DNA of 64,000 nt from a virus. Its lineage: Duplodnaviria; Caudoviricetes. The notes under the pieces were generated by a model. It was not told the origin of the DNA and searched no databases. It saw nothing but the letters and a program-made list of their open reading frames with translations. Location of the stretch: IMG/VR virus record IMGVR_UViG_3300020190_000004. The stretch is one strand, 5' to 3'. Positions within the stretch are counted from its first letter, which is position 1; each line of letters opens with the position of its first letter. A program made the position numbers and the translations under genes. Positions 3,439-58,286 of this stretch are shown here, piece by piece.

Positions 3439-3446
3439 TATATATC
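3439..3446 (-). promoter_or_regulatory. Putative late promoter GATATATA
   Basis: Exact motif recurs upstream of at least 11 structural/late genes in the window. Confidence 0.6.
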
Positions 3447-7727: not shown

Positions 7728-7735
7728 TATATATC
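7728..7735 (-). promoter_or_regulatory. Putative late promoter GATATATA
   Basis: Exact recurring motif. Confidence 0.55.
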
Positions 7736-10732: not shown

Positions 10733-10936
10733 TTAGTACTCGTGTTCATCGAGTTCTTTGTTAGAACTCTTTATTCCAGGTGTAAAGTATCCTTTTTGTT
10801 TATTAAAAGCCGCTGAAAACATTTCCCAACCCTTGTCGTTAACAGGTGGTTGTACTACGTATTTAGGAGGCGTGTAGTCACTTGTCATCCCTTTTTCGAA
10901 TTTATCGAATTTAGGAGTCTTTTTCTTACTGCTCAT
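10733..10936 (-). CDS. Small hypothetical protein (likely start MSSKKK at 10936)
   Basis: ATG overlaps the 3' end of the upstream gene; the ORF track start at 10981 is probably too far upstream. Confidence 0.55.
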   Translation of the reverse strand: MSSKKKTPKFDKFEKGMTSDYTPPKYVVQPPVNDKGWEMFSAAFNKQKGYFTPGIKSSNKELDEHEY

Positions 10937-11225
10937 AATTCTTTCCTTCAGTTCTTTTCTGCTTTGCGATTTCAGAAGCACCTGCTAATTGCTTGCGCTT
11001 CTCTTTTAAGTTGTTTTTATCTACCTCAAGTTTAAGTAACTTAATGTCGATTTCTAAGATTTGAGCTTCAAAGTCTTGCTTGTTCTTTATGTGAGCTTTA
11101 CGTTGGTTAGTGAGGTCAGCAATCTGAGCAAGTAACTCAGCGTTGGCCCCGCTTGTGTCAGCATTCGCCTCTTCATTAGCCGAATACTTCATTTTCTCCC
11201 AGTCACTAAATCTTGTCATTTTCAT
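10926..11225 (-). CDS. Coiled-coil protein with capsid-targeting-like N-terminus (MKMTRFSDWEK...ANEE)
   Basis: Heptad-rich; GAATATATA late-like motif at 11230-11238. Confidence 0.6.
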   Translation of the reverse strand: MKMTRFSDWEKMKYSANEEANADTSGANAELLAQIADLTNQRKAHIKNKQDFEAQILEIDIKLLKLEVDKNNLKEKRKQLAGASEIAKQKRTEGKNYEQ

Positions 11226-17454: not shown

Positions 17455-17462
17455 TATATATC
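17455..17462 (-). promoter_or_regulatory. Putative late promoter GATATATA (tape measure gene)
   Basis: Exact motif directly after a terminator hairpin. Confidence 0.6.
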
Positions 17463-18863: not shown

Positions 18864-18891
18864 ATTATATATCCATTGGCAAGAAAAGTTC
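18864..18891 (-). promoter_or_regulatory. Hybrid promoter: GAAC-N18-TATAAT overlapping GATATATA
   Basis: Both recurring motifs coincide (GATATATA at 18866-18873). Confidence 0.55.
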
Positions 18892-19547: not shown

Positions 19548-19555
19548 TATATATC
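19548..19555 (-). promoter_or_regulatory. Putative late promoter GATATATA
   Basis: Exact motif upstream of the tube gene. Confidence 0.6.
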
Positions 19556-23444: not shown

Positions 23445-23452
23445 TATATATC
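23445..23452 (-). promoter_or_regulatory. Putative late promoter GATATATA
   Basis: Exact motif upstream of the sheath gene. Confidence 0.6.
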
Positions 23453-27987: not shown

Positions 27988-27995
27988 TATATATC
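27988..27995 (-). promoter_or_regulatory. Putative late promoter GATATATA inside an inverted repeat (27970-27999)
   Basis: Exact motif; flanked by GGGTGA/TCACCC. Confidence 0.55.
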
Positions 27996-32168: not shown

Positions 32169-32384
32169 TTACACGTCCCAAATAGATTTCTTTCTCTTAA
32201 ACATTTTGCGCACGTCTAACCAAAGTGCAATCTTTCGTATAAGTCTTTTCATAGTTTGTGGTTTTTCTTTCTTCTTGGGAAACCTTCCGTGATTTCCCAT
32301 GCTATCATAGTCTGTGCAATATGCCATCGGAGATGGAAGATCACTGTAATGGCAGTGCAGATCTTCTTTGTTTTCTATTTCCAT
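32169..32384 (-). CDS. Small hypothetical protein
   Basis: 71-aa ORF coupled to the upstream gene. Confidence 0.5.
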   Translation of the reverse strand: MEIENKEDLHCHYSDLPSPMAYCTDYDSMGNHGRFPKKKEKPQTMKRLIRKIALWLDVRKMFKRKKSIWDV

Positions 32385-32839
32385 ATTGTTGCCTTTTTGT
32401 GTATAAATTCTGCTTTAAGCTTTAAGTAAAGACCATTGGTTCTTGCTTCTACCCAATAGTCGTAAAATAGTTTGGCCGACTTTGCTTTTTCGCTAGTAGC
32501 CCAATCAATTTCTTGGGGGAGAATGCTTCCGTCAACGTCATACTTCTTTCCACTTTTGTGGTTGGCATATCTTCGTGCGCGAGTGAATCCCATGTGGAGG
32601 TATTTCTTGCACATATCAGCACCTACAAAGTCACCGATTTCCAAGTAGCCTAAGAACTCTTGATAGATTTCTTTGCGTGAGATATCTGCTTCCCGAGTGG
32701 TCTTAAATCTCCAGATAGGGTGTAGCCTAGACTTGTAGGGTTCACAGATAAGCACACCTTGCTGGCCTCGACCAATCTCGTAGAGGTGTGGGTTCTTTTC
32801 GTAATCTGTTCCTGGCTTCCAAGCGTAGTCTTCCATCAT
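32375..32839 (-). CDS. DUF4385 family protein
   Basis: LYEIGRGQQGVLICEPYKS...WRFKT...DFVGADMCKKYLHMGFTRARRYANHKSGKKY. Confidence 0.8.
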   Translation of the reverse strand: MMEDYAWKPGTDYEKNPHLYEIGRGQQGVLICEPYKSRLHPIWRFKTTREADISRKEIYQEFLGYLEIGDFVGADMCKKYLHMGFTRARRYANHKSGKKYDVDGSILPQEIDWATSEKAKSAKLFYDYWVEARTNGLYLKLKAEFIHKKATIWK

Positions 32840-32849
32840 AGATCTTTAG

Positions 32850-32878
32850 GTTTATATTCAAATGTTGTATAACGGTTC
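32850..32878 (-). promoter_or_regulatory. Putative ECF-type promoter GAAC-N18-TATAAA
   Basis: Recurring bipartite motif. Confidence 0.65.
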
Positions 32879-33463
32879 TTACTTAAAGGGTGTACCTCCA
32901 ACCCAAAATACCAAAGACTTTCTTACCCCAGCTGATACCTTTTCTACCATGTGAGGTATATAAGTCGGGTAAGCGATGAAAGAACCTAACGCTCTTGGAA
33001 CTGTGTGTATACCGCCAGCCATGAAATAGAGATTACCTCCGCGATAGTCATCACTTGAACTCAACTGAACTGATACGGCAATCTTTCTTCCGCTAAACGG
33101 CGGAGGTGACGCCATGTCAACGTGCCAATCGTAATGATCACCTTCATGGTACTCACAGTACATAATGTGCTCAACCATATCAATAGGATCAAACTGCCAC
33201 ATCTTATCATTGGAGACTTTAATTAAATCATAAAGTCTTCCGTACAACCATGCTGACTCGTCGTTGTAATCTATCCAACCGCCTCGACAAGAACGAACTT
33301 CTGGGTTATACTCACCGTCAACGGTAGCATCAATAAGTTCGATTTTGTTAGTAATCTCTAGTATGCGATTAATCTCTTCTTCTGAAAGAGCAGACTCAAT
33401 CACACCTGGTGAAACCAGTGAAACTTCTTTTTCTTCGTGAAGAGCTTGACCTATTGCTATCAT
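32879..33463 (-). CDS. 2OG-Fe(II) oxygenase (PKHD-type)
   Basis: HxD motif DWHVD, RKIAVSVQLS, YRGGNL, HMVEKVSAGVRKSLVFW. Confidence 0.9.
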   Translation of the reverse strand: MIAIGQALHEEKEVSLVSPGVIESALSEEEINRILEITNKIELIDATVDGEYNPEVRSCRGGWIDYNDESAWLYGRLYDLIKVSNDKMWQFDPIDMVEHIMYCEYHEGDHYDWHVDMASPPPFSGRKIAVSVQLSSSDDYRGGNLYFMAGGIHTVPRALGSFIAYPTYIPHMVEKVSAGVRKSLVFWVGGTPFK

Positions 33464-35858: not shown

Positions 35859-35866
35859 TATATATC
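35859..35866 (-). promoter_or_regulatory. Putative late promoter GATATATA (portal)
   Basis: Exact motif. Confidence 0.6.
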
Positions 35867-36045: not shown

Positions 36046-36777
36046 TTACATTCCTGGTTTAGTAAATCTCTTTTGTATTTTCTTTGCACCCTCTGGGTCT
36101 GGTTTTCTTGGGTTCTTTAATTGTTCTGATCTAAACTTGGTGTATTCAGTCCACACTTTAGCCGGCGGCATTCCTATAAACTCTTTGGGTATAAAGTACG
36201 GAAGCATTTCATAATCGCTAAATTCTATAAGAACTGGCTCCATTATTCTAGGAAGAAGGTAATTTCTAAATCCCCACTTATAGCCAATCTGCCCACCTCT
36301 GTCGAACATCTTGGAGATAAAGTCCCAATTCTGTAAATTTAGGATAGCATTTTTCATTAAGCCTACCTGGCCTTTAGAGACAAGTTCTTTAGCTTGATCC
36401 ATGTCTTTCTTAAATGCATCTTCATAAATTGACAGAAGCTGAAATCTTTGAGATTCGGGAAAGTAATTTAAGTTAAGACCCTGAACTATCAGATTTCCGT
36501 TAGCTGTTGTAGACTGGCCGTGAACTAGTACAAACGGTCTCTTGTCATAGTAAGGCAACTGCTTTGCGTACAAAGGATCATACTTAAATGTGTAAAAGCG
36601 CCCGGGTATAAAAAACTTAAGTTTCTTTGCTAACACACGTTCGCCTGGGTCGAAGAGTTCCTCTACTTTAAACGGCTGCTTAAAGTATTTCTTCTCTAGA
36701 TAAGGATATGCTTCTTTGCGAAGTTTGTCTTTATCTTTTGTGTTGTTGTATCTTGTAAACGCGTTATCTAACATCAC
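36046..36777 (-). CDS. DNA end protector protein (T4 gp2-like)
   Basis: GRFYTFKYDP...LPYYDKRPFVL...GLNLNYFP. Confidence 0.75.
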   Translation of the reverse strand: MMLDNAFTRYNNTKDKDKLRKEAYPYLEKKYFKQPFKVEELFDPGERVLAKKLKFFIPGRFYTFKYDPLYAKQLPYYDKRPFVLVHGQSTTANGNLIVQGLNLNYFPESQRFQLLSIYEDAFKKDMDQAKELVSKGQVGLMKNAILNLQNWDFISKMFDRGGQIGYKWGFRNYLLPRIMEPVLIEFSDYEMLPYFIPKEFIGMPPAKVWTEYTKFRSEQLKNPRKPDPEGAKKIQKRFTKPGM

Positions 36778-37280
36778 TTTCTAAATAAGAAGTCTTCAGT
36801 TACTACAATGAATTTGTAACCTCTACCTTCTGCATATTGTTTAGCTGCAGCAAACTTAGCTCGATTAGTTAACCAAGTCGATAGTGCATAATTATAGTTT
36901 TTGAGTTTCTTAGTAGTCATGTTACCTTCAAGAATTGGCTGAACCAAAGAAGCTGCTGGTTTAACCTCAGCAATAAAATCTTCGAAGCAGTCATCGCGTT
37001 GAACACGCATATAAAAGTCTACATAATAAGTATGTTCTCTACCGTCGATGGGACTTGTGTATTTAATACCAAGAGGCTCTGAAGACCACTTTAAAACTTC
37101 TTCATTAAGATCACAATACCGGCAGAACCTAAACTCCCATGAAGAACGATAAATGATTTTACTTAAATCACCAATGTACTTATCAGGGTTTTCTAACTTG
37201 TAATATCCTTGTCTGTAACCGCCTCTGTGCGTAGGCTTGTTTGATTTTATATCACTCATAATGAATACTTTATTAATCAT
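36774..37280 (-). CDS. gp4: Head completion nuclease (T4 gp4-like, TnsA-like endonuclease)
   Basis: ENPDKYIGD...IIYRSSWE...WSSE...YYVDF...EVKP...KFAAA..YAE.RGYKFIVVTE. Confidence 0.9.
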   Translation of the reverse strand: MINKVFIMSDIKSNKPTHRGGYRQGYYKLENPDKYIGDLSKIIYRSSWEFRFCRYCDLNEEVLKWSSEPLGIKYTSPIDGREHTYYVDFYMRVQRDDCFEDFIAEVKPAASLVQPILEGNMTTKKLKNYNYALSTWLTNRAKFAAAKQYAEGRGYKFIVVTEDFLFRK

Positions 37281-37311: not shown

Positions 37312-37656
37312 TTATAGACTATAGAGATTTTCGTTGCTTAAAGATACCTGGTCCGTTGAACTAAGAGGGTGAAGTTTTCTCCAGCCTTTAGCAAAGCCGT
37401 TCTTTATGATTTGTGTATAGTAAGCAAACGGATACTTTGACTTTTCAGGGTTGTAACTTCTCCAGTATTTCACAACATCCATTAGTGCAAAAGCAATACA
37501 ATCTTTACGATCTTCTTCATCTTTATATCTTAGCTTTTTAGAAGCACCTTCTGCCATAAGCATAAGCATTTCAATAGCTCTTGGTGTCAATTCATTTTTT
37601 TCTTTAGATAGAAGAATTTCTTTTCTAAACTCTTCAGGGTTTACATAATTTGCCAT
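37312..37656 (-). CDS. gp55: Late-transcription sigma factor (T4 gp55-like), short form
   Basis: YVNPEEF...DRKDCIAFAL....YWRSYNPEKSKYPFAYYTQIIKNGF. Confidence 0.8.
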   Translation of the reverse strand: MANYVNPEEFRKEILLSKEKNELTPRAIEMLMLMAEGASKKLRYKDEEDRKDCIAFALMDVVKYWRSYNPEKSKYPFAYYTQIIKNGFAKGWRKLHPLSSTDQVSLSNENLYSL

Positions 37657-39895: not shown

Positions 39896-39903
39896 TATAT
39901 ATC
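39896..39903 (-). promoter_or_regulatory. Putative late promoter GATATATA
   Basis: Exact motif. Confidence 0.6.
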
Positions 39904-41471: not shown

Positions 41472-41479
41472 TATATATC
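41472..41479 (-). promoter_or_regulatory. Putative late promoter GATATATA (5 nt from ATG)
   Basis: Exact motif. Confidence 0.55.
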
Positions 41480-50201: not shown

Positions 50202-50230
50202 GTTTATATTCAATACTTAATAATTAGTTT
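50202..50230 (-). promoter_or_regulatory. Putative ECF-type promoter AAAC-N18-TATAAA
   Basis: Recurring bipartite motif. Confidence 0.6.
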
Positions 50231-50862
50231 TAGATGATTTGGTCAATTAACCCATACTTTAAGCAAGTCTTTGCATTCCACCAAATGTCTTTTGATAAGA
50301 TGTTATCCATTTCCTTTTCTGGTATTTTAGAGTTTTCTTTGTACCAATCTTTTATGGATTTCATAATGTTTGCGTTGTTGGACATTTCTTCTTTAAGTTC
50401 GGAGTATTTTCCCCACCCACCGTTTCTTAGCTCATGTACAAGCATGAAAGCATTCTTTCGCATTAAGCGTTTAGTTCCTGCAATAGAAGCAAAAGTGGCT
50501 CCTGACGCAGCGCAGCCTTCAACAATGGTTACGATTGGTACTATGGCGCTGATTCTTTGTATCGTATCAGCCATAGCAAAAGCTGAAAAGACTTCTCCGC
50601 CATAAGAATTAATGTGTAACCAAATAGGAGAGGGTTGACCAACTTCATGCATGCTTGAGAATGCTGTCGGCGCAAGACGCATTGATAGGTCTTGTAGTAT
50701 TGCATTTAATTTCAAGGCTGATGCAGGTGTGATAGGCGCATAAAACCAAATATGATCGCCAACTACTTTGATGTCATGATAGTTGTATAAATTTTCGCCG
50801 TCTTCGTCTTCATCACTTCTTTTAACAGGTATTCCTCTGTTATTCATCGGTGTCTTCTTCAT
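50230..50862 (-). CDS. clpP: ClpP-like serine protease
   Basis: LHINSYGGEV, GCAASGAT (catalytic Ser), MLVHE (His), DIWWNAKTCLKYGLIDQI. Confidence 0.85.
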   Translation of the reverse strand: MKKTPMNNRGIPVKRSDEDEDGENLYNYHDIKVVGDHIWFYAPITPASALKLNAILQDLSMRLAPTAFSSMHEVGQPSPIWLHINSYGGEVFSAFAMADTIQRISAIVPIVTIVEGCAASGATFASIAGTKRLMRKNAFMLVHELRNGGWGKYSELKEEMSNNANIMKSIKDWYKENSKIPEKEMDNILSKDIWWNAKTCLKYGLIDQII

Positions 50863-52297
50863 CGTTATTTGTGTTTGAGAATACTTCTATTCCGTCGATT
50901 TCTTCTTCTTCGGAAAATAAGTCAGTTATTGAATTTGTTCTGTTTTGTGTAGCTCTTTTCATAGAAGTATCTTCCATAGATTCGTAAGCCTTAATTGCTT
51001 CTGTGAGTTCAATTCTTTGCTTTTCAATATCAGTGGTAAGTTCTATAATCTTATTATTGGTTCTTGTAAGTTCATCCTCGGAGAGGGATCTCAATAAGAT
51101 AGCATTTAATCGACGCCTGATAGTATCAGCGTTAGGAACACCTTTGGTTATTTTGTTAAGAAATTCATCGATTTCTTTTTCATTCCACATTTCTTTTTTC
51201 TTTTCAATCATGAATGTAAGATATTGTACTTTTCTCTTTAAGAATTCAAGTTCATCTGTGTTGATATTAAAGAAGTACGTTAGTCGCTTAACGCGCAAGT
51301 CTGCCAGCCGGTAACGATAGTCAGTAATGTAGTCTTCAACTCTTTCGTACTCAAGAACAAGACCGTCTTTTACAAACACTGGGGTTTCAGTTACCAGCAT
51401 TTTAACCGACTTGTTAACTGCGTCTAAGAAAGATTCCCACTCAGCAGTGTTGCCTGTAAACTTAAGTAATATGTCAATGTTAGTTGAAGAGTTGTTGGTT
51501 AAGCGAACGCTTGGGTAACTTGTAAGAACGCTATCTAGTTTCTTTAAGAAAGCACCGTATCTCATAAGAGGAGGCAATTCAGTAACTCTGATAGTCTTTT
51601 CTTTTTCGTTCTTTTCAAGTACACCTTCAATTAACCAAGTTTTGTTCATACCCTTAAAGCGAGTAATTTTACCAGTGAAACCTTTGAATTTGGGATGTAC
51701 TTCTTTAGCTTTGCCGTCTAGGAATTTTTGAATATCTTTAAGATCTCGCGGCAAGACTGTAGTTTTGTAACCAACCGCAATACCTACGATTGTGTTTGTA
51801 AGACCTATCGGTAAATCTACCCATAAAGGATTCCAAGATCCTTCTTCATTCTTGTGATTTAAGAAATCACTCTTTCTAATCATCTCAGATATCGCAGGGT
51901 TTATCTTAACAGAGGTATATCTTGCTGCAGATGCTTCCTGATTGATAGGGGTTCCAAAGAACCCGTCGCCTACCAGTAATTGCTCACTATTGCCAAATGG
52001 TCGAGCAAGTTTGTTTATCGCACCAGTTAGAGACTTGTCACCGTGATGGTAACCGTCACTGATACAAGATCCTACGAGTGATATGGTTTTGTTAAAGTTT
52101 GCAGGAGCATTTACCATTATGAAACGCTGTACGTTTGTTAGTCCATCGTAAAAGGATGGGATTCCTCGGTTTTCTAAAACATACAATGCGTAGTTTCGAA
52201 AGTTTGTATCTATTTGCCGGGAAATGTTTAGCGGATATGCTTTCTTCTTCAAGATACTTAGGGTTTTAATTTTGTGTTTTATATACACAAAGGGCAA
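50840..52297 (-). CDS. gp52: Type IIA topoisomerase, cleavage subunit (T4 gp52/GyrA-like); true start possibly TTG at 52252
   Basis: IPSFYDGLTNVQR, YHHGD, catalytic AARYT. Confidence 0.9.
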   Translation of the reverse strand: MPFVYIKHKIKTLSILKKKAYPLNISRQIDTNFRNYALYVLENRGIPSFYDGLTNVQRFIMVNAPANFNKTISLVGSCISDGYHHGDKSLTGAINKLARPFGNSEQLLVGDGFFGTPINQEASAARYTSVKINPAISEMIRKSDFLNHKNEEGSWNPLWVDLPIGLTNTIVGIAVGYKTTVLPRDLKDIQKFLDGKAKEVHPKFKGFTGKITRFKGMNKTWLIEGVLEKNEKEKTIRVTELPPLMRYGAFLKKLDSVLTSYPSVRLTNNSSTNIDILLKFTGNTAEWESFLDAVNKSVKMLVTETPVFVKDGLVLEYERVEDYITDYRYRLADLRVKRLTYFFNINTDELEFLKRKVQYLTFMIEKKKEMWNEKEIDEFLNKITKGVPNADTIRRRLNAILLRSLSEDELTRTNNKIIELTTDIEKQRIELTEAIKAYESMEDTSMKRATQNRTNSITDLFSEEEEIDGIEVFSNTNNDEEDTDE

Positions 52298-52305: not shown

Positions 52306-52992
52306 TTATTCGTATCTAATTAGGTCGTACTTCCAAATAAGTTTAACAATGTATCTAGCAATTTCGCTATCAGACGGGAAATGAATACCCATCTTGACCC
52401 TGCTTTCTGCTATTCTTTCAGCAAGGTGTTCTAGTTCACCGCGATAAAGTGGGTATTTTCGGCTGTAGTATTCAGCAAGATTAAAAGATGACGTTGCATG
52501 CCCACTTGGGTAAGATGCGCTATTTGCATCTGTGTGTATAATTGGGAAAAGAGGTAAGCGATATGCTTTACCTAATTGATTAGGTCTAGGTCGATTAATT
52601 TCTTCCTTAAGATAAAAAAGAATAGCTTCAGTTTGTGAATCAACGCCTTTCAGTTCTCCCATAGTTTCTTTTATGCCTTTAGCCGCAAAAAAGTCTAAAA
52701 AGACTTGCTCATAAGATTCTTCTGCCTGTCTTGCAAAAACTATATCTTCTGGCGTTACAGTTTTCATCATTGACATAACGGTCTGTATGTCATTCTGAGT
52801 TATTTCGCTGTAATTGGTAGGTGCTTCTTTTATAATTTTTTCGGCAAGTCCTTTATCAACAAAAAACTTTTTAATATGATTATCTGCATCATTAGCTATT
52901 TTATACAATTCAAGGGTTGGATTGCCAAATTGAATTGCGTTGATTTCATCAGCAGGCAAACTGTCTTTATATTCTTCGTATAGTTTTATCAT
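52306..52992 (-). CDS. PAP2-superfamily phosphatase/haloperoxidase-like protein (likely start MIKLYEEY at 52992)
   Basis: C1 K-X6-RP (KEEINRPRP), C2 PSGH, C3 SRVKMGIHFPSD. Confidence 0.85.
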   Translation of the reverse strand: MIKLYEEYKDSLPADEINAIQFGNPTLELYKIANDADNHIKKFFVDKGLAEKIIKEAPTNYSEITQNDIQTVMSMMKTVTPEDIVFARQAEESYEQVFLDFFAAKGIKETMGELKGVDSQTEAILFYLKEEINRPRPNQLGKAYRLPLFPIIHTDANSASYPSGHATSSFNLAEYYSRKYPLYRGELEHLAERIAESRVKMGIHFPSDSEIARYIVKLIWKYDLIRYE

Positions 52993-54038
52993 AAGTATTT
53001 GTAGCCAAACATATTTGTACAAACATGCATTTCTGTTCTAAAAGTTGGCTCGTCTTTTGTGGTAAGGTACACAAAGTATGTACACAGTTGAATTAGTCTC
53101 TTAACTGCATATTCACTCATGATTCCGTAATAGTCTTCATAAATACATTTATAGATAAGAGGGACCATGTTTGAGAACAATCCCGGTGTAGAATTTGACT
53201 CAATGAAGAAGTGTTTGCCGTTTCTATCAATAGCAATGTCAAGCCCGGCGATGTTGAGAGTTGGGTTGATGTCGAAAATAACTTTTGCTATATGATAACA
53301 TTCTTTAACGCTTAAACCTTTAACATCTTGTGGTTCTACTTGCGTCCAAGAAAAGTTAGATTTTTCGCGGTTATCGAGTTTGTCTTCAGTCATTCCAGCT
53401 TCGTTTACTCTTAATGACTTGGCTTTATCATTAAGCGGGTCTCTACGAAAAACTGAAAGCATTCTGATACCCGTGTTCTTTCCTCTAAAGAAAACTATTC
53501 TAAACTCCTGATCAATTTGAATTTGCTCTTGGTAAATGTCAAAACCTTTAACCAATTTGTTTAATCCTGTTTTTGTAGAAACTTTTTCTACACCACGAGA
53601 TTGATATGTGTTTGATGCTTTAGCAATAATGGGAAACTTAAGTTCTTTCTTTGCTTCAGCTGGTGTAAAAACTGTTTTAGGCAGCCAAGGAAAATCAAGT
53701 TTCTTAAGTATTTTAAGAGTGTCAAGTTTACTAACTACAATCCCGTGTGGGGCGTTGTAAACTTTATCAGCTGTAAGCAAGTCATGACCTATAGTATCGC
53801 TTATTCCGTACTTTTCGATTAATGACTGTTTGTCCCACAGTAATACAGGAAGCGTTTGTTCAATAACATCACTTAAGTATGTATCAGGGCTGTCACAAAA
53901 TTGGAAGATCTTTGCGATATTCTTTTGAACATTTTGCTTTTGCTCCATGTCCATCGTGGAAAACATAACAACTTTACCAAACTCAACAGGTTCGGTGGCA
54001 GATGCTTTAACAAAGAGATCAAAAGGATCAACTCTCAT
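52989..54038 (-). CDS. RimK-like ATP-grasp ligase
   Basis: FPIIAKA..TYQSRGVEKV, YQEQI....EFRI, AGLDIAIDRNGKHFFIESNSTPG. Confidence 0.8.
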   Translation of the reverse strand: MRVDPFDLFVKASATEPVEFGKVVMFSTMDMEQKQNVQKNIAKIFQFCDSPDTYLSDVIEQTLPVLLWDKQSLIEKYGISDTIGHDLLTADKVYNAPHGIVVSKLDTLKILKKLDFPWLPKTVFTPAEAKKELKFPIIAKASNTYQSRGVEKVSTKTGLNKLVKGFDIYQEQIQIDQEFRIVFFRGKNTGIRMLSVFRRDPLNDKAKSLRVNEAGMTEDKLDNREKSNFSWTQVEPQDVKGLSVKECYHIAKVIFDINPTLNIAGLDIAIDRNGKHFFIESNSTPGLFSNMVPLIYKCIYEDYYGIMSEYAVKRLIQLCTYFVYLTTKDEPTFRTEMHVCTNMFGYKYL

Positions 54039-54050
54039 TTAGGAAGTTTC

Positions 54051-54410
54051 TTATTTAAGAGTAAGAAGGTACTTAAGTTTCATCAAGTCAGCCCTCGCTT
54101 CATCACGGATGTTTGCAATTTCGCTATCTTGTTCTGCAATGAACGCACCTGTCAAGAAATCATCCATAGTCTCAATAAAAGCTTCTATTTTAAGATTATC
54201 ATAGTCGGCAAAAGTAATTTGCTTGACCCCGCCAAACTTAGGACGTTGGTATTTACCGCTATAAACTTCTATTAATCTATCAAATCTTTCATTTAAGTCT
54301 TCGTAAATTAACCCAAAGGCGTTATGTTCTGCGTAAGATTCAGTTTGCCAGTGAAGAATTCTTAATTGACCCTGAATCTGTATTATGTTTGCTAACAATT
54401 CTTTTTCCAT
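54051..54410 (-). CDS. Ferritin/Dps-like four-helix protein (DUF5856-like)
   Basis: LHWQTESYAEHNAF..IYEDL....DRLIEVYSG; C-terminal NIRDE....L.KLKYLLTLK. Confidence 0.75.
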   Translation of the reverse strand: MEKELLANIIQIQGQLRILHWQTESYAEHNAFGLIYEDLNERFDRLIEVYSGKYQRPKFGGVKQITFADYDNLKIEAFIETMDDFLTGAFIAEQDSEIANIRDEARADLMKLKYLLTLK

Positions 54411-54438: not shown

Positions 54439-54464
54439 TTTTAGCGAATTATGTGTTTCATCTT

Positions 54465-54857
54465 TTACTTGTTATTTCGCGCCCAATCAATAAAAGCTTG
54501 TATTTTTTCTATGCAATACTTAGCTAACCAGCGACGATATTCAGCGCCTGTTCTAAACTGCTCAACACCATCTACTTGTGATTGCTTCCAAGCAGCTGAT
54601 TTGTCTTGTCCAAAAAGAGGCAATTCTCTTGCATCTTTCAAAAGAAGCTGTAATTCTTGGTCGTTTTTATCGTCAAGTGCTTTATTAAACTTGTTAAGAA
54701 GATTTTCATAAATCTCAATTCTTATAGTCTCACCTAACCAATTTTCAGCTTCTGGATCAGCATACACTTTAACTTTACCAGCTTCAAGTTCAATGCTGAT
54801 TGGAGTAGTTAAATCTCTACCACCTTCATTAAGCCAAGATTCGTAGGATTTGACCAT
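54465..54857 (-). CDS. Putative capsid-internal protein (CTS-like leader MVKSYESWLNE)
   Basis: Leader resembles the T4 capsid-targeting sequence ending in L-x-E. Confidence 0.65.
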   Translation of the reverse strand: MVKSYESWLNEGGRDLTTPISIELEAGKVKVYADPEAENWLGETIRIEIYENLLNKFNKALDDKNDQELQLLLKDARELPLFGQDKSAAWKQSQVDGVEQFRTGAEYRRWLAKYCIEKIQAFIDWARNNK

Positions 54858-55397
54858 CTACTTCTTGGTATTTTCTAGGTATTTCTTAAACTCTGTGCAA
54901 GCTTTCATAACTTCACCTTGGTCGCTGAGGTCGCTGATTACATAGTCAAGTGAACCTTCGTCATCGCTGGCAAAAACACCGCCAATTACAAACTCTGAAC
55001 CGTTGTAAGCAAGTTCACTGTAGTCTAACATAGTTAAAAGGTTGTATTCAGTATCCGCAACCGGAATATACAACTCATTAGCAAAGTTAGAGCTGTCAAT
55101 AACAGTGTTATCCACGTCAAGCTCTATACCGCATCTTTTGAATGCATCAGCAACATACTTAAGAAAAGGTGGTACGTCTTTCTTAATAATTCCAGTAAGT
55201 GGAACAGGTTTAGCCTTCTTCATTGCCTCAACGGCAACAGCTTCTACTTCTTTCTCTTCCATTTCATCGGAGTTTTTGCCGGTTCCGTCTAACATATACG
55301 AGCCTACTTCCCATAAGTCAGCGTCTACGCCCTCATTGTAGTTAATACCTTCACTGATGTTTGAGAAGTATTCGTTAATGCTTTTTATGTGTTTCAT
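54858..55397 (-). CDS. Putative capsid-internal protein (leader MKHIKSINEYFSNISE)
   Basis: Acidic protein with a CTS-like leader. Confidence 0.65.
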   Translation of the reverse strand: MKHIKSINEYFSNISEGINYNEGVDADLWEVGSYMLDGTGKNSDEMEEKEVEAVAVEAMKKAKPVPLTGIIKKDVPPFLKYVADAFKRCGIELDVDNTVIDSSNFANELYIPVADTEYNLLTMLDYSELAYNGSEFVIGGVFASDDEGSLDYVISDLSDQGEVMKACTEFKKYLENTKK

Positions 55398-55398
55398 C

Positions 55399-55911
55399 TT
55401 AGATGATTATGTTTTTAAGATTAAACATTTGAGCGCTATCCCAGTTTCCACGAGGATTGTCCATTACCTGATAACTGCAGCCGTACATAACGGATACTTT
55501 TAAGTATAATTTTTTTCCAGCAGAATCTTCTACTTCAAATATCTTAAAAGCGTTAGCGCTATCACCAAAACCGACAACTGTAAAAGTTTCTGGCCGGGTT
55601 TGGAACGTGCCTTCAAATTTAGCACCGTCAGATATTTTGTTAATGAGTTTTTTGCCATTCATCTCCATTTGCATAGGGGTGATGACTCCTTCATTTAACA
55701 AAGACTCATTTGAAGACTTGTACATATTTTCAATAAAAGTCTCAAATTCTTTTCCAGACTTTTTGTCCTTTACGGTCATTTTGTCTCCACTAATCTTCTT
55801 TACCTCAAAGTTGAATCCCTGTACCGCATTACCTACAGTATCACCAACTTTAATGTCTTGGTTGGCTTTGCCTTCGTTCAAGAAGCTTTCAAATGTGTGT
55901 ATGTGTTTCAT
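55399..55911 (-). CDS. Putative capsid-internal polyprotein (leader MKHIHTFESFLNE; internal LLNE site)
   Basis: Two small beta modules, the first KOW/SH3-like, separated by SNESLLNE. Confidence 0.65.
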   Translation of the reverse strand: MKHIHTFESFLNEGKANQDIKVGDTVGNAVQGFNFEVKKISGDKMTVKDKKSGKEFETFIENMYKSSNESLLNEGVITPMQMEMNGKKLINKISDGAKFEGTFQTRPETFTVVGFGDSANAFKIFEVEDSAGKKLYLKVSVMYGCSYQVMDNPRGNWDSAQMFNLKNIII

Positions 55912-55925
55912 AATAGATGTTTTTG

Positions 55926-56444
55926 TTATGCTTTTCTGTCATCTAGTCTAAAAGAAGATGTGTACATTCTCTGAGATGGCATATCCAGGTTTGTACCTGC
56001 CATGTCAAAGAACTTGGCAAAATCTGCATTATCTTCTAAAGAGCTGTAGTCAAATCCTAATCGGTCTTTTGGGTCATTTAGATTAGCAAAGATAAAGAAA
56101 GCATTTCCCTTCTCAGAAAAGCCTAATGTGTCAAGGTCGAATTTGCCAGGACAGCAGTCTTCAAGAATCTTTGGAAGAGCGTCAAGTGCTTTTTGTGCAA
56201 AGGCGTATATTTTTGTTTTACGATCGTAGATGGCTTTTGCATTTTCTTGTGCCCAGTCTACTGTATAGTACTTGTCTTTAGCAGCCTCGTTAAGGTCTTC
56301 GCCTTCTTCAAGTGCATCTTCTTTTATAGTGTATTTCTTTCCCTGAAATTCAAACTCTTTTAGACCTTGCTTCTTTGCATTTGCCAAAGCAGCATGAAAT
56401 GCATTCTCGTTTAAGAAATTTTCAAATGATGATATGTGTTTCAT
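55926..56444 (-). CDS. Putative capsid-internal polyprotein (leader MKHISSFENFLNE; internal LEE/LNE sites)
   Basis: CTS-like leader and internal L-x-E motifs. Confidence 0.65.
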   Translation of the reverse strand: MKHISSFENFLNENAFHAALANAKKQGLKEFEFQGKKYTIKEDALEEGEDLNEAAKDKYYTVDWAQENAKAIYDRKTKIYAFAQKALDALPKILEDCCPGKFDLDTLGFSEKGNAFFIFANLNDPKDRLGFDYSSLEDNADFAKFFDMAGTNLDMPSQRMYTSSFRLDDRKA

Positions 56445-56470
56445 AGTCTCTGATTTTTTTTTGACCAGAG

Positions 56471-56478
56471 TATATATC
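56471..56478 (-). promoter_or_regulatory. Putative late promoter GATATATA
   Basis: Exact motif heading the CTS cluster. Confidence 0.6.
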
Positions 56479-56483
56479 AGGGA

Positions 56484-58286
56484 TTAGATCCTCCCTTCTA
56501 ACCAACGTTTTCTCTTGTCAGCAGAATTTCCAAAGGCAATTTCCATGTATTTGCCAGCTGAACGATCTATGCGAATCTTAAACATCTTGCGTTCTGCCAT
56601 AACCATTTCCCAGTCTTGTATACTCAATGAACCTAACCCTTTAAGATAACGAACATTTTTGTAAGGAGTTCCGCTTTTCTCAAACTCGCCCCACTCATGA
56701 AGAGAATAGAAGTATTGTCTTTTGTTCTTAACTTCAGCAGAAACAAGCGGAGTAATTAAGATATGAAGTTTGCCAGTTTCAATCACTTGTGGAAACCACT
56801 TATAGAACAAGTTAATCACCAACGAAGCGATGTGACCTATTCCATCAGGGTCCCAATCGGTAGAGATGACAACGTTTGAGAATGCACATTTACTTCCGTC
56901 TCGTGGTTCAAGGTTAAGAATGTTCATCAAGTCAATGATTTCATTATTAGAACTCAAGTCACTTAAGTTTCTTGCGTTCTTAATCTTGCCCTTTAACGAA
57001 TACACTGCATCAATCCGCGGATCTCGTTTCTGTAAGATTGAACCCATAGCTGAAGAACCTTCAACTATGAAAAGAGATCCTTTGCTTTGTGAAGGCGGAA
57101 AGTACTTATCGCTTATGCGTTTGCTTGCAGCTTTCTTCTTGTTCTTGATGTTTTTAAGATCTTGTGTTTGAGTTCTTTCATCAATCAGTTTACGAACAGT
57201 TTCGTAAAACTTAGTTTTCTTGAGAGACTGATTAATCTTTTTGTTAAAGTCAGTCAGTAAGTGCTGTATTTCCCAACGACCTGCCGCGTACTTGGTTTTG
57301 TTTTGGTCAGCAAAACGAACCAGCTTAGGTGGAAAGTTAAGAATAAGAAGAGTCTCGTAAAAGTGATGAGCTAATGTATAGTCAAAGATGTCATTCACCC
57401 AGTCAGTAAAAATCTTTTGGTGAATACCCGTACATATAGCGCCGTTTACGAATGAAGCAGATGTTGCATTTTCGTATCGATTCCATATCACAAACATTCC
57501 CATCTTGCCCTTAAACACAATCGCGTCTTCTGGCAAGAATGACTGGTTAAGTTCAAGTTTTGTGTTGTCAAAGAAGAACTCAATCTCCAAGTTACTGATA
57601 ACAGGGTCTTGATTCTTTAAGAACTCCCGAAAGATGAACATGGTGTGTAAGTATTCTTTATCCCAAGTACATCCTTTGAAAATGTCAGTGCGTGGAATGT
57701 ATCTTACAGTAGTACCCGTTTGTGAATTGCGTTTTTTCTTGTCAGTGGTTTCTCGTTTTTTCTCAAAGCGGTTCCACTGAATGTTGTACTCTATTTCATT
57801 GTTAATTGTGGTAATAACAAATTCTTCCGAAAGCATGTTCACAAGAGCAGCACCCACTCCATTAGTACCAATTAAAGAATCATTTGAGTTTTCATTATAG
57901 AAGTTTGAACCAGCTCTTAACATTGACATTGCTGTCTCAACGTTGGATTGCCCTGTCTTTGTGTTTGCCTTTTCAGCGTTAATGAATCCGCCACCAGTGT
58001 CGGTTACTTCTACTTCATTATTTTTTGAATTAATCTTAACGATGATTTTAGGCATTACGCCCTTCATTCTCTTTGCTTCATCAAAAGCATTGTCAACGAT
58101 TTCATTAAACATCTTATAGAATCCTACAGATATGATCTTGTTCTTTGCAACAAGTTTTCCATTCTCCACGATCTGTACGCTTTCTTCAGATTTCTCAACC
58201 GAACCAATATACATGGTTGGTCTGTGTGTCACATGTTCAAAATCTGATAGTGCTACAATTTCTTTGTTAGATTTTTGTTTTGTCAT
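56484..58286 (-). CDS. Type IIA topoisomerase, ATPase/TOPRIM subunit (T4 gp39+60 / GyrB-like)
   Basis: EHVTHRPTMYIGS, EIVDNAFD, GTNGVGA, VEGSSA, LKGKIKN, TDWDPDGIGHI, YLKGLGS. Confidence 0.95.
   Translation of the reverse strand: MTKQKSNKEIVALSDFEHVTHRPTMYIGSVEKSEESVQIVENGKLVAKNKIISVGFYKMFNEIVDNAFDEAKRMKGVMPKIIVKINSKNNEVEVTDTGGGFINAEKANTKTGQSNVETAMSMLRAGSNFYNENSNDSLIGTNGVGAALVNMLSEEFVITTINNEIEYNIQWNRFEKKRETTDKKKRNSQTGTTVRYIPRTDIFKGCTWDKEYLHTMFIFREFLKNQDPVISNLEIEFFFDNTKLELNQSFLPEDAIVFKGKMGMFVIWNRYENATSASFVNGAICTGIHQKIFTDWVNDIFDYTLAHHFYETLLILNFPPKLVRFADQNKTKYAAGRWEIQHLLTDFNKKINQSLKKTKFYETVRKLIDERTQTQDLKNIKNKKKAASKRISDKYFPPSQSKGSLFIVEGSSAMGSILQKRDPRIDAVYSLKGKIKNARNLSDLSSNNEIIDLMNILNLEPRDGSKCAFSNVVISTDWDPDGIGHIASLVINLFYKWFPQVIETGKLHILITPLVSAEVKNKRQYFYSLHEWGEFEKSGTPYKNVRYLKGLGSLSIQDWEMVMAERKMFKIRIDRSAGKYMEIAFGNSADKRKRWLEGRI

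Follow-up and report, generated by a model that had tools for sequence, protein, structure and literature searches.

T4-like leader peptides on a four-gene cluster between the topoisomerase II subunit genes of an uncultured giant phage: candidates for head-packed, protease-trimmed cargo

The gene cluster and its surroundings

Four open reading frames, p4 to p1, lie tightly packed on the minus strand between the two subunit genes of a DNA topoisomerase II. The analysed window comprises 64,000 nt of the IMG/VR record IMGVR_UViG_3300020190_000004. The source is an uncultured, giant, lake-dwelling phage distantly related to T4; genomes of the lineage have a size of about 240 kb. Read along the minus strand, the locus contains the following features:

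56484..58286, minus: DNA topoisomerase II large subunit (T4 gp39-like; phrog_543, E 1e-104; Toprim and HATPase_c domains), upstream flank
56470..56478, minus: GATATATAC box, 34 nt ahead of the start codon of p4; putative late promoter for the operon
55926-56444, minus: p4, 172 aa; leader MKHISSFENFLNE, nt 56406-56444
56286..56294, minus: internal L-N-E of p4, aa 51-53, predicted cut between E53 and A54
55399-55911, minus: p3, 170 aa; leader MKHIHTFESFLNE, nt 55873-55911
55690..55698, minus: internal L-N-E of p3, aa 72-74, predicted cut between E74 and G75
54858-55397, minus: p2, 179 aa, acidic; extended leader MKHIKSINEYFSNISE, nt 55350-55397, predicted cut between E16 and G17
54465-54857, minus: p1, 130 aa, helical; variant leader MVKSYESWLNE, nt 54825-54857, predicted cut between E11 and G12
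54441..54461, minus: leader stub ATGAAACACATAATTCGCTAA (MKHIIR, then a stop), vestige of a fifth cassette
54051-54410, minus: DUF5856 protein, occupant of the variable interval
52989-54038, minus: ATP-grasp protein, occupant of the variable interval
52306-52992, minus: PAP2-like protein with a degenerate leader, occupant of the variable interval
50840..52297, minus: DNA topoisomerase II medium subunit (gp52-like; phrog_551, E 6e-65; DNA_topoisoIV on the JGI calls), far flank

The gaps between p4, p3, p2 and p1 amounted to 14, 1 and 0 nt. JGI gene callers had called the same four reading frames on contigs from four metagenome samples, and the genes were adjacent with exactly the N-termini given in the initial annotation. 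Its description of the payloads as otherwise unrelated was also borne out: tblastn yielded no cross-matches beyond the leader, and the proteins fell into four distinct homologue families. p1 and p2 were conserved across the clade with 50-88 % identity, with p1 orthologues at the same locus in the related loci L003, L013 and L024. Homologues of p3 and p4 were absent from most relatives in a tblastn search of related loci. The mature products were acidic to neutral with pI values of 4.2 to 8.0, the lowest belonging to the mature part of p2 (pI 4.2). None of the four proteins matched a family in Pfam, PHROGs or NCBIfam. Profile searches against PDB sequences returned nothing for p2 and p3 and only chance-level rows for p1. 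Foldseek, which had been proposed as a check, recognised no fold at E <= 0.001 for the models of p1 and p3, neither in PDB for both models nor in BFVD for p3. The best hit of p3 in a wide VIA-align search, Z 6.5, was within the noise range, ESM Atlas provided no usable match for p4 and p2, and the cluster locus had no blastn match among 50,697 phage records.

Gene content is hypervariable in the interval that separates the two topoisomerase II subunit genes, a clear case of cassettes turning over at a fixed position flanked by conserved genes: 29 related loci held between 0 and 5 different leader-bearing (tagged) reading frames, and the content differed. Traces of exchange were also present in the DNA of the cluster. 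The 12-nt sequence ATGAAACACATA occurred in four exact copies within 2 kb, the fourth of them on the leader stub, and these copies shared codons beyond the prediction from codon usage (P about 0.001). The stub together with the four identical 12-mers marks local recombination. Upstream of the start codons of the cluster, a common sequence was not detected. The cluster sits among replication genes, a position that counts against a reading as head cargo.

The leader peptide

The leaders follow the consensus M-K-H-[ILV]-x-x-[FY]-E-x-[FY]-[LIV]-N-E, an amphipathic peptide with a length of 11-16 residues in p1-p4. In T4, ipII and ipIII start with MKTYQEFIAE and ipI with MKTFKEF (read from NC_000866). 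The prohead protease gp21 cuts after L/I-x-E, residues 4 and 7 serving targeting and residues 8 and 10 processing (PMC9026906). Aligned on the terminal Glu, the leader presents F/Y at P7 and P4, followed by L/I in position P3 and E in position P1. All four mapped positions agree, and the resemblance to the T4 capsid targeting sequence noted in the initial annotation holds. Aromatic residues (F/Y/W) occupied P7 and P4 in p1, p3 and p4. In p2 they were found in a shifted register as Y10/F11, so that the strict motif [FYW]xx[FYW][LIVMF]xE was missed; divergent homologues of p2 displayed the canonical spacing in an MK..FE.F leader, which was followed by a second site. Two p1 homologues carried MKHIQTFESFLNE in place of the variant leader.

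The leader ends on LNE in p1, p2 and p4 and on ISE in p3. This [LIV]-x-E boundary was kept in 15/15 homologues of p1, 14/15 of p2, 7/7 of p3 and 18/18 of p4. The boundary Glu was invariant for p1 (Glu11) and p2 (Glu16) as well as for p4 (Glu13, 18/18 in alignment A2), and a small residue, in most cases G, A or S, usually came after it. Conservation was weaker at the remaining [LIV]xE triplets of the four families, with the exception of an IFE in p3 that was kept in 14/16 homologues, but this triplet is followed by Val and located within a folded strand.

A search with the strict motif, which had been suggested as a check, matched the N-termini of 3 of the 73 reading frames of the window, and these were p1, p3 and p4. 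From the internal frequency of 7 matches per 20,000 residues, about 0.5 N-terminal matches were expected. In the related genome G001 the motif was present at 27 N-termini, an 11-fold enrichment (p = 6e-16), and 9 of the 32 internal matches were situated in the scaffold. About 8 % of the G001 reading frames are tagged, far above T4, and some of them encode enzymes, for example a homologue of PAP2 and a protein whose HxGH motif is nucleotidyltransferase-like. Since the tag is attached to enzymes and to so many reading frames, it may serve something besides cargo loading. Two further leaders listed in the initial annotation fared less well. MKMTRFSDW on the reading frame 10926-11225 contains no [LIV]xE, and the G001 homologue lacks a leader; this candidate is not supported. 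The PAP2-like protein of the window starts with MIKLYEEYKDS and has no cut site, whereas its homologue in G001 opens with the canonical leader MKSFQEWLSE.

At the conserved leader residues, codon identity was equal to the expectation from codon usage (18 leaders, two genomes); codon 2 was always AAA. Conservation of the leader acts on the peptide, not on the DNA.

Two-module architecture of p3 and p4

p4 consists of the leader, a mini-module of ~30 aa, a linker and a C-terminal module (aa 54-172). p3 is arranged similarly, with the leader, a small beta module (aa 14-60), a linker region that holds a degenerate internal leader, KEFETFIEN, and a conserved C module (aa 75-170). The AlphaFold model of p3 had a pLDDT of about 90 in the C module and below 50 in residues 1-33 and 61-73; the internal site is placed in a predicted disordered linker between two folded modules. 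Three internal sites had been named initially. The LLNE of p3 was conserved as [LIVM]-x-E in 16/16 homologues, with an invariant Glu74 and Gly, Ala or Ser as the next residue. The LNE of p4 was kept in 10/11 homologues, usually followed by Ala, while the LEE of p4 was present in only 2/7 and was dropped. The internal sites of both proteins retain solely the [LIV]-N-E core; the aromatic part is lost.

The modules also occur independently of each other. In p3 homologues of 113 aa the leader was directly followed by the internal site and the C module. Each of the two p4 modules, mini-module and C module, also turned up on its own behind a leader in further proteins from metagenomes, and stand-alone homologues of the p4 C module began immediately after the same L-N-E site. 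Homologues of p3 and p4 had differing inserts, or none, between leader and internal site. Many phage proteins from metagenomes contained the p4 mini-module flanked by [LIV]xE sites, and Pfam yielded nothing informative on the larger proteins that carry it. Thus, p3 and p4 possess conserved sites between independently occurring modules, as polyproteins should; p1 and p2 are not polyproteins, and the proposal, originally made for the whole cluster, is to be restricted accordingly.

Putative late-promoter box

The cluster had been placed behind a late promoter. Within the box, GATATATA at 56471-56478 occurred 11 times in the window versus 2.2 expected copies. All 11 copies were intergenic, on the coding (minus) strand and 10-53 nt before start codons, and the genes behind them include those for sheath, tube, portal and other virion proteins. 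The coding strand of G001 bears 32 copies of the GATATATAC box and the opposite strand two; one copy precedes the protease-scaffold gene. A gene for a gp55-like late sigma factor is located at 37312-37656. The T4-type late promoter TATAAATA was absent at the cluster and unenriched in the window, and scans for sigma-70 promoters and terminators remained at or below the shuffle expectation. The late promoter is therefore retained as a putative lineage-specific box shared with virion genes, not as a match to the T4 consensus. That the box is common to virion genes supports late expression of the operon.

Protease, scaffold and capsid protein in relatives

The evidence for a protease, for scaffold repeats and for an LNE site in the capsid protein comes from relatives only; the topoisomerases of the relatives with protease are 45-80 % identical to that of the source. 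Within the 64-kb window, neither an S77 protease nor a scaffold gene was found. A gp21-type S77 protease (Peptidase_S77, PF03420) was detected above the cut-off in G001, G004 and G005. The G001 and G004 proteases form a fusion with a scaffold in which Y-x-E-Y-[LIV]-A-E is repeated 8-15 times; the G001 gene for this protein spans 189221-191092. Scanning metagenomes for the protease-scaffold protein recovered 80 relatives. The capsid protein of the relatives keeps SLNE followed by G at about residue 43. A complex prediction for the p4 leader region and the G001 scaffold repeats gave a score of 0.00; it was run without controls and counts neither way. The correlation of leaders with scaffold repeats is a weak comparison across four lineages.

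Comparison with known systems

The T4 internal proteins IPII, IPIII (both MKTYQEFIAE) and IPI carry a capsid targeting sequence that is removed by the gp21 prohead protease (Mullaney and Black 1996, reviewed in PMC9026906 and PMC3012670). As in the cluster, a short N-terminal propeptide is attached to otherwise unrelated proteins; P7 and P4 are aromatic, P3 is aliphatic and P1 is Glu, and the L/I-x-E site, cut in T4 and predicted to be cut in the cluster, usually has a small residue next. The payload genes are likewise poorly conserved between relatives and located in variable loci, and a gp21-type S77 protease belongs to the lineage, as read in relatives. The differences are considerable. With an added MKH-I-x-x the leader reaches 13 residues and ends on L-N-E instead of I-A-E; the payloads are acidic to neutral, whereas T4 IPII and IPIII are basic; and a second, internal site divides some of the tagged proteins into two parts. 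The lineage carries dozens of tagged genes per genome versus three to five in T4, and its protease is fused to a scaffold of leader-like repeats. The closest cultured relatives of the source are only about 30 % identical in the topoisomerase, and the tag and cut of this lineage are predictions from sequence.

The giant phages phiKZ, 201phi2-1 and SPN3US have propeptide-bearing ejection or inner-body proteins that are cut by gp175/gp245, proteases of the families S80/S77 (PMC5694885, PMC9026906). Their propeptides have mostly >100 residues and are not one common short peptide (PMC5694885). The present lineage would share with these phages a large cargo of many proteins, the cut after Glu at a short motif, several redundant sites in the propeptides and cargo genes that are tandem paralogues. 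The S80 model, too, gives a score for the G001 protease. The cleavage motif of phiKZ-type phages has a small residue at P3 instead of L/I, and the lineage described here differs from them by its T4-type head genes.

By portal similarity, Tenacibaculum phage PTm1 (Shirahamavirus) is among the closest cultured relatives; Sphingomonas phage PAU scores similarly. The portal of PTm1 is only 28 % identical, its genome contains no match to either leader DNA pattern, and its scaffold lacks repeats of the type aromatic-xx-aromatic-[LIV]-x-E. PTm1 is nevertheless alike as a jumbo T4-like myovirus with a Bacteroidota host, and its major capsid gene is directly preceded by a fused gene for "prohead core scaffolding protein and protease".

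Interpretation

We assign a probability of about 0.65 to the reading of the cluster as a late operon for head-targeted, protease-trimmed cargo at a hypervariable site between the topoisomerase II subunit genes. p1-p4 are probably packed into the capsid, and by analogy to T4 we infer docking, cleavage, packaging and ejection. The leader would be an N-terminal propeptide with the same role as the capsid targeting sequence of T4. Its aromatic P7 and P4 would dock the protein into the prohead scaffolding core, itself composed of Y-x-E-Y-[LIV]-A-E repeats, and a gp21-type (S77) prohead protease would cut after the Glu of [LIV]-x-E. This cut would free the mature protein inside the head, and delivery with the DNA could follow. 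Predicted products of a single cut are residues 12-130 of p1 and 17-179 of p2. Each of p3 and p4 would unite two tagged cassettes and receive two cuts, giving the predicted products 14-74 and 75-170 for p3 and 14-53 and 54-172 for p4. Tagged cassettes would be swapped at the topoisomerase interval by recombination at the leader-coding DNA. The payloads may possibly act in counter-defence or host takeover.

Tagged proteins could instead be parts of the core or the assembly machinery, like T4 gp67 and gp68, that use the leader to enter the prohead core, assist in building or sizing the large head and are afterwards cut and mostly expelled or left as inert filler; a function directed at the host would then not be involved. 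The scaffold is made of leader-like repeats, and the motif may just mark core membership; p3 and p4 are predicted to be cut to small pieces of 40-61 aa, as are T4 core proteins (PMC9026906), and the identity of p1 and p2 across the clade (50-88 %) resembles structural helpers more than arms-race genes. For essential assembly parts, however, a variation from 0 to 5 tagged genes at the locus between close relatives is unexpected; p3 and p4 are without homologues in most relatives, and the C modules are compact and folded (pLDDT about 90), not coiled-coil scaffold. We judge a core function unlikely. The exact agreement at the four positions mapped in T4 and the recurrence of the same LNE site in the capsid-protein propeptide and in the scaffold repeats argue against a tag unrelated to the capsid, be it the propeptide for another protease or a localisation, stability or translation-initiation element of late genes. 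A ClpP-family gene is indeed located at 50230-50862, three genes past the downstream end of the cluster, but the [LIV]-N-E core kept by the internal copies suits a Glu-directed site-specific protease, not ClpP. Codon 2, always AAA, corresponds to a known initiation preference, but beyond this codon the peptide is conserved rather than the DNA. Even with about 8 % of the G001 reading frames tagged, enzymes among them, a purpose apart from the capsid appears quite improbable.

Very little probability is given to a functionless peptide, the repeated gene start being a DNA-level recombination cassette like the PeSL modules of T4-type phages. The four exact ATGAAACACATA copies within 2 kb, with their codon sharing (P about 0.001), and the highly variable gene content of the locus would be in line with such a cassette. 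Outside the 12 nt, however, synonymous sites vary according to codon usage while the amino acids are kept (18 leaders), nothing is shared upstream of the ATG, and the Glu boundary stays invariant within families whose identity has fallen to about 50 %. Recombination at the leader, moreover, fits the head-cargo explanation and forms part of it.

A broader form of the head-cargo explanation is more tentative, and we are inclined to doubt it: the leader might be a general, exchangeable label that loads dozens of proteins into the head, with new cargo born by recombination and fused cassettes split by the protease. If so, the cargo would amount to close to a tenth of the genes of the lineage, enzymes included. 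New cargo would arise through recombination at the leader DNA, fused cassettes would be separated inside the capsid, and the four genes of the cluster would give six mature products, one of them a mini-module peptide of 40 residues.

If the reading as head cargo is right, the "address and cut" principle of T4 works in a lineage that is only about 30 % identical in core genes, and the few internal proteins of T4 have been scaled up to a large, rapidly exchanged cargo set. The leader would then provide a simple sequence rule for the prediction of virion-delivered proteins in uncultured giant phages, and such delivered proteins would be prime candidates for counter-defence or host takeover. A tag this short would also be worth trying for the loading of foreign proteins into capsids. 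The cluster adds the fusion of two tagged cassettes in one protein, with a conserved predicted internal cut site.

Four adjacent genes with a common leader

Four adjacent open reading frames, p1 to p4, separated from p4 to p1 by gaps of 14, 1 and 0 nt, share a short N-terminal leader. We read them, with a probability of about 0.65, as a late operon that encodes cargo targeted to the capsid and trimmed by the prohead protease. On this reading the operon occupies a site prone to recombination, and two of its genes are fusions of cassettes whose products would be cut twice.

Features of the cluster and its surroundings (positions in the window)
56484-58286, minus strand: topoisomerase II large-subunit gene (phrog_543, E 1e-104), one flank of the cluster
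55926-56444, minus strand: p4, 172 aa, N-terminus MKHISSFENFLNE
56328-56405, minus strand: p4 mini-module (p4 aa 14-39), AFHAAL..AK..GL.EFEF.GK.Y, also in metagenomic proteins P0023-P0054
55399-55911, minus strand: p3, 170 aa, N-terminus MKHIHTFESFLNE
54858-55397, minus strand: p2, 179 aa, N-terminus MKHIKSINEYFSNISE
54465-54857, minus strand: p1, 130 aa, N-terminus MVKSYESWLNE
54441-54461, minus strand: leader stub ATGAAACACATAATTCGCTAA, 21 nt directly after p1, coding for MKHIIR, then stop
54051-54410, minus strand: DUF5856 gene, other flank of the cluster
37312-37656, minus strand: gp55-like late sigma factor

All genes of the 64 kb lie on the minus strand. Identical p1-p4 calls were made by the JGI gene callers on contigs from four metagenome samples, and a contig of 238,241 bp carries the exact p1 and p2 sequences. 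None of the four proteins matched Pfam, PHROGs or NCBIfam, and they did not match one another outside the leader; the initial annotation of four adjacent leader-bearing, otherwise unrelated genes was thus borne out. The strict leader motif, [FYW]xx[FYW][LIVMF]xE starting within the first 20 residues, was N-terminal in three of 73 window ORFs, all belonging to the cluster, for an expectation of about 0.5 derived from seven matches inside window proteins (about 20,000 residues). The protein p2 fails the strict spacing; its divergent homologues have a canonical MK..FE.F leader, then a second site.

Other window products include tail sheath, tail tube, large terminase, portal and a gp15-like neck protein (weak Pfam match, under cut-off), and T4-type replication genes are present. 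A nucleotide search against phage records gave no match. By topoisomerase the nearest cultured phages were T4-like (about 30 % identity), by portal the nearest records were uncultured huge phages and Lak phages (33-45 %), next Tenacibaculum phage PTm1 (28 %). Topoisomerases 45-80 % identical are present on 29 IMG/VR contigs; the one relative read whole, G001, has 238,475 bp and a topoisomerase 77 % identical. Near the portal gene (36774-37280 and 32375-33463), a TnsA-like endonuclease domain (PF08722), DUF4385 and a 2OG-Fe(II) oxygenase were observed.

Comparison with the T4 capsid targeting sequence

T4 ipII and ipIII start with MKTYQEFIAE, ipI with MKTFKEF (T4 RefSeq record). Packaging of IPIII requires only the first 10 residues; residues 4 and 7 chiefly govern targeting, residues 8 and 10 govern processing, and the prohead protease gp21 cuts after L/I-x-E (PMC9026906). 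Aligned on the terminal Glu (P1, the predicted cut following it), the common leader carries F/Y at both P7 and P4, P3 is L/I and P1 is E. It therefore agrees with the IPIII targeting sequence at four of four mapped positions, and the proposed likeness holds there. With T4 as the model, packaging, cleavage and ejection may be expected of p1-p4: the leader would direct them to the capsid as cargo, where the prohead protease would trim them, cutting the two putative fusions twice.

Predicted cut sites and modules

For each protein a separate homologue family was obtained by database searches, and [LIVM]-x-E triplets were scored in the alignments.

Conservation of predicted cut sites among homologues
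p1 E11: kept in 15/15; next residue G, S, R or A
p2 E16: kept in 14/15, Glu16 itself invariant; next residue G
p3 E13: kept in 7/7; next residue mixed (S, N, A, E)
p3 E74: kept in 16/16; next residue G, A or S
p4 E13: kept in 18/18; next residue mostly small (G, S, A, N)
p4 E53: kept in 10/11; next residue mostly A

The remaining triplets were kept in 0-67 % of homologues or lay within a folded strand. Among the internal sites named initially, LLNE of p3 (E74) and LNE of p4 (E53) are conserved, but LEE of p4 (2/7) is not. Both conserved internal sites retain the [LIV]-N-E core and have lost the aromatic positions, which suggests a division of labour, the aromatics serving targeting and the core cleavage.

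The C module of p3 (aa 75-170) recurs in 113-aa proteins made up of leader, directly x-[LI]-N-E and module, and in 185-220-aa proteins with unrelated inserts between leader and x-[LI]-N-E. Since a degenerate internal leader, KEFETFIEN, precedes SLLNE, p3 looks like two tagged cassettes fused. In its AlphaFold model the C module, a helix packed on a beta sheet, has a pLDDT of about 90, a small beta module (aa 34-59) is weaker, and the internal site is in a linker (aa 61-73) below 50. The protein p4 consists of leader, a mini-module of about 30 residues (AFHAAL...GKKY), a linker ending in LNE and a C module, the last found alone behind the leader in other proteins. The mini-module, with no family in Pfam, is found in many metagenomic proteins of various lengths, where it stands directly behind [LIV]xE-G/S sites, sometimes two in tandem. 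The p1 model is a helical bundle (pLDDT 69). Fold searches with the p1 and p3 models gave no significant match. The products expected after trimming range from acidic to neutral, p2 having the lowest pI (4.2).

Promoter box

The T4 late consensus TATAAATA was not enriched in the window and was absent at the cluster. The box GATATATA occurred 11 times versus 2.2 expected, usually with C or A as next base; all 11 copies were intergenic, on the coding strand and 10-53 nt ahead of a start codon.

Copies of GATATATA in the window (coding strand, minus)
3439-3446, 7728-7735, 17455-17462, 18866-18873, 19548-19555, 23445-23452
27988-27995, 35859-35866, 39896-39903, 41472-41479, 56471-56478

Genes behind the box include those for sheath, tube, portal, the gp15-like protein and a 2073-aa virion protein. 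The copy at 56471-56478 (next base C) is 34 nt upstream of the p4 start. G001 has 32 copies on the coding strand and 2 on the opposite one, with sheath and protease-scaffold genes among those preceded. The box probably serves this lineage as late promoter, standing in for TATAAATA of T4, and the genes driven by it would be expressed late. Because the box is read in this way, the late promoter first proposed ahead of the cluster is supported as an element common to virion genes, but not as the T4 sequence.

Protease, scaffold and capsid genes of related phages

PF03420 (Peptidase_S77) scored over cut-off in the related genomes G001, G004 and G005.

Head genes in relatives
S77 protease-scaffold fusion, 5-15 tandem Y-x-E-Y-[LIV]-A-E repeats of 14 residues: G001 189221-191092 (L031); G004 (L032); loci L062-L141
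Major capsid protein, N-terminus conserved across clades: G001 187328-189199; also L063, L074, L098, L113 and others

The G001 protease ORF (623 aa) runs on into a scaffold that repeats a 14-residue Y-x-E-Y-[LIV]-A-E-K unit eight times; the G004 scaffold has about 15 Y-x-E-Y-[LIV]-A-E repeats. Across 80 metagenomic loci, clades sharing 39 % or more identity with the G001 protein had mostly 2-14 repeats, while a clade 35 % identical has the fusion with zero repeats. PTm1 has the same fused gene, without repeats and without the leader. The adjoining capsid protein has LNE at residues 4-6 and, at about residue 43, H-S-L-N-E followed by G (ALNE followed by A in distant clades), likely propeptide cleavage sites.

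Spread of the leader and the variable locus

In G001 the N-terminal motif was found in 27 ORFs (11-fold enrichment, p = 6e-16). A strict DNA pattern coding for F-[ED]-x-F-x-N-E matched 14 times in G001, five times each in G002 and G003, once in G004 and not at all in G005, PTm1, Lak-A1, LR756500 and PAU; the reversed-pattern control gave zero matches. The interval that separates the two topoisomerase subunit genes contains, in the 29 relatives, 0-5 tagged ORFs, which belong to differing families and are interspersed with DUF5856, ATP-grasp and other genes; in relatives with a topoisomerase 49-60 % identical, the subunit genes are adjacent. Orthologues of p1 occupy the locus in three relatives and of p2 in one; none of p3 or p4 was found there. 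Of the genes in the interval, that for DUF5856 alone is constant in closer relatives. In the window it has GATAAATA upstream, and its product matches phrog_858, to which T4 rI.-1 belongs (T4 record label).

Alternative readings

Conservation could reside in the DNA or in the peptide. Across a set of 18 leaders drawn from the window and from G001, codon identity at conserved residues equalled the codon-usage expectation (for example P3 0.34 versus 0.33; P1 0.71 versus 0.75), with codon 2, always AAA, as sole exception, which argues that selection acts on the leader peptide. The four copies of ATGAAACACATA in the cluster share codons above expectation (P about 0.001), and the first 12 nt of the stub are exactly those of the p2-p4 leaders; together these point to local duplication or recombination at leader-coding DNA. 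The stub itself looks like the leftover of a fifth cassette that was lost or exchanged. That the leader is purely a DNA-level cassette is, given the codon comparison, very improbable.

The motif also recurs in the G001 scaffold, which holds 9 of 32 internal matches, and p1-p4 might be core-only assembly proteins; we hold this to be unlikely. Somewhat more doubtful still is a tag without link to the capsid, tied for instance to the nearby ClpP-family protease gene (50230-50862, minus strand; PF00574, 87 bits). The ClpP-family gene, labelled head maturation protease in PHROGs, adjoins the topoisomerase II medium-subunit gene, a position conserved in relatives.

Further tagged proteins

Two further leaders had been proposed. 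The one at 10926-11225 found no support, as no [LIV]xE follows the aromatics and the G001 homologue has no leader. The PAP2-like protein starts in the window with MIKLYEEYKDS, without a cut site, but its G001 homologue has a canonical MKSFQEWLSE and then some 90 additional residues; this second proposal has partial support. Leader-tagged enzymes, the PAP2 homologue among them, are encoded in G001 at 70495-71076 and 204037-204990, and one tagged protein has a nucleotidyltransferase-like GRFQPFHKGH motif directly behind MRHVQTFESFINE. G001 also has five paralogous leader-tagged genes (174543-177442 and 181335-181949; 182-279 aa) with ...GPNADLNHIDVS... in common; four stand in tandem, preceded by a GATATATA box. 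They are reminiscent of the arrays of paralogous inner-body genes in phiKZ-like phages.
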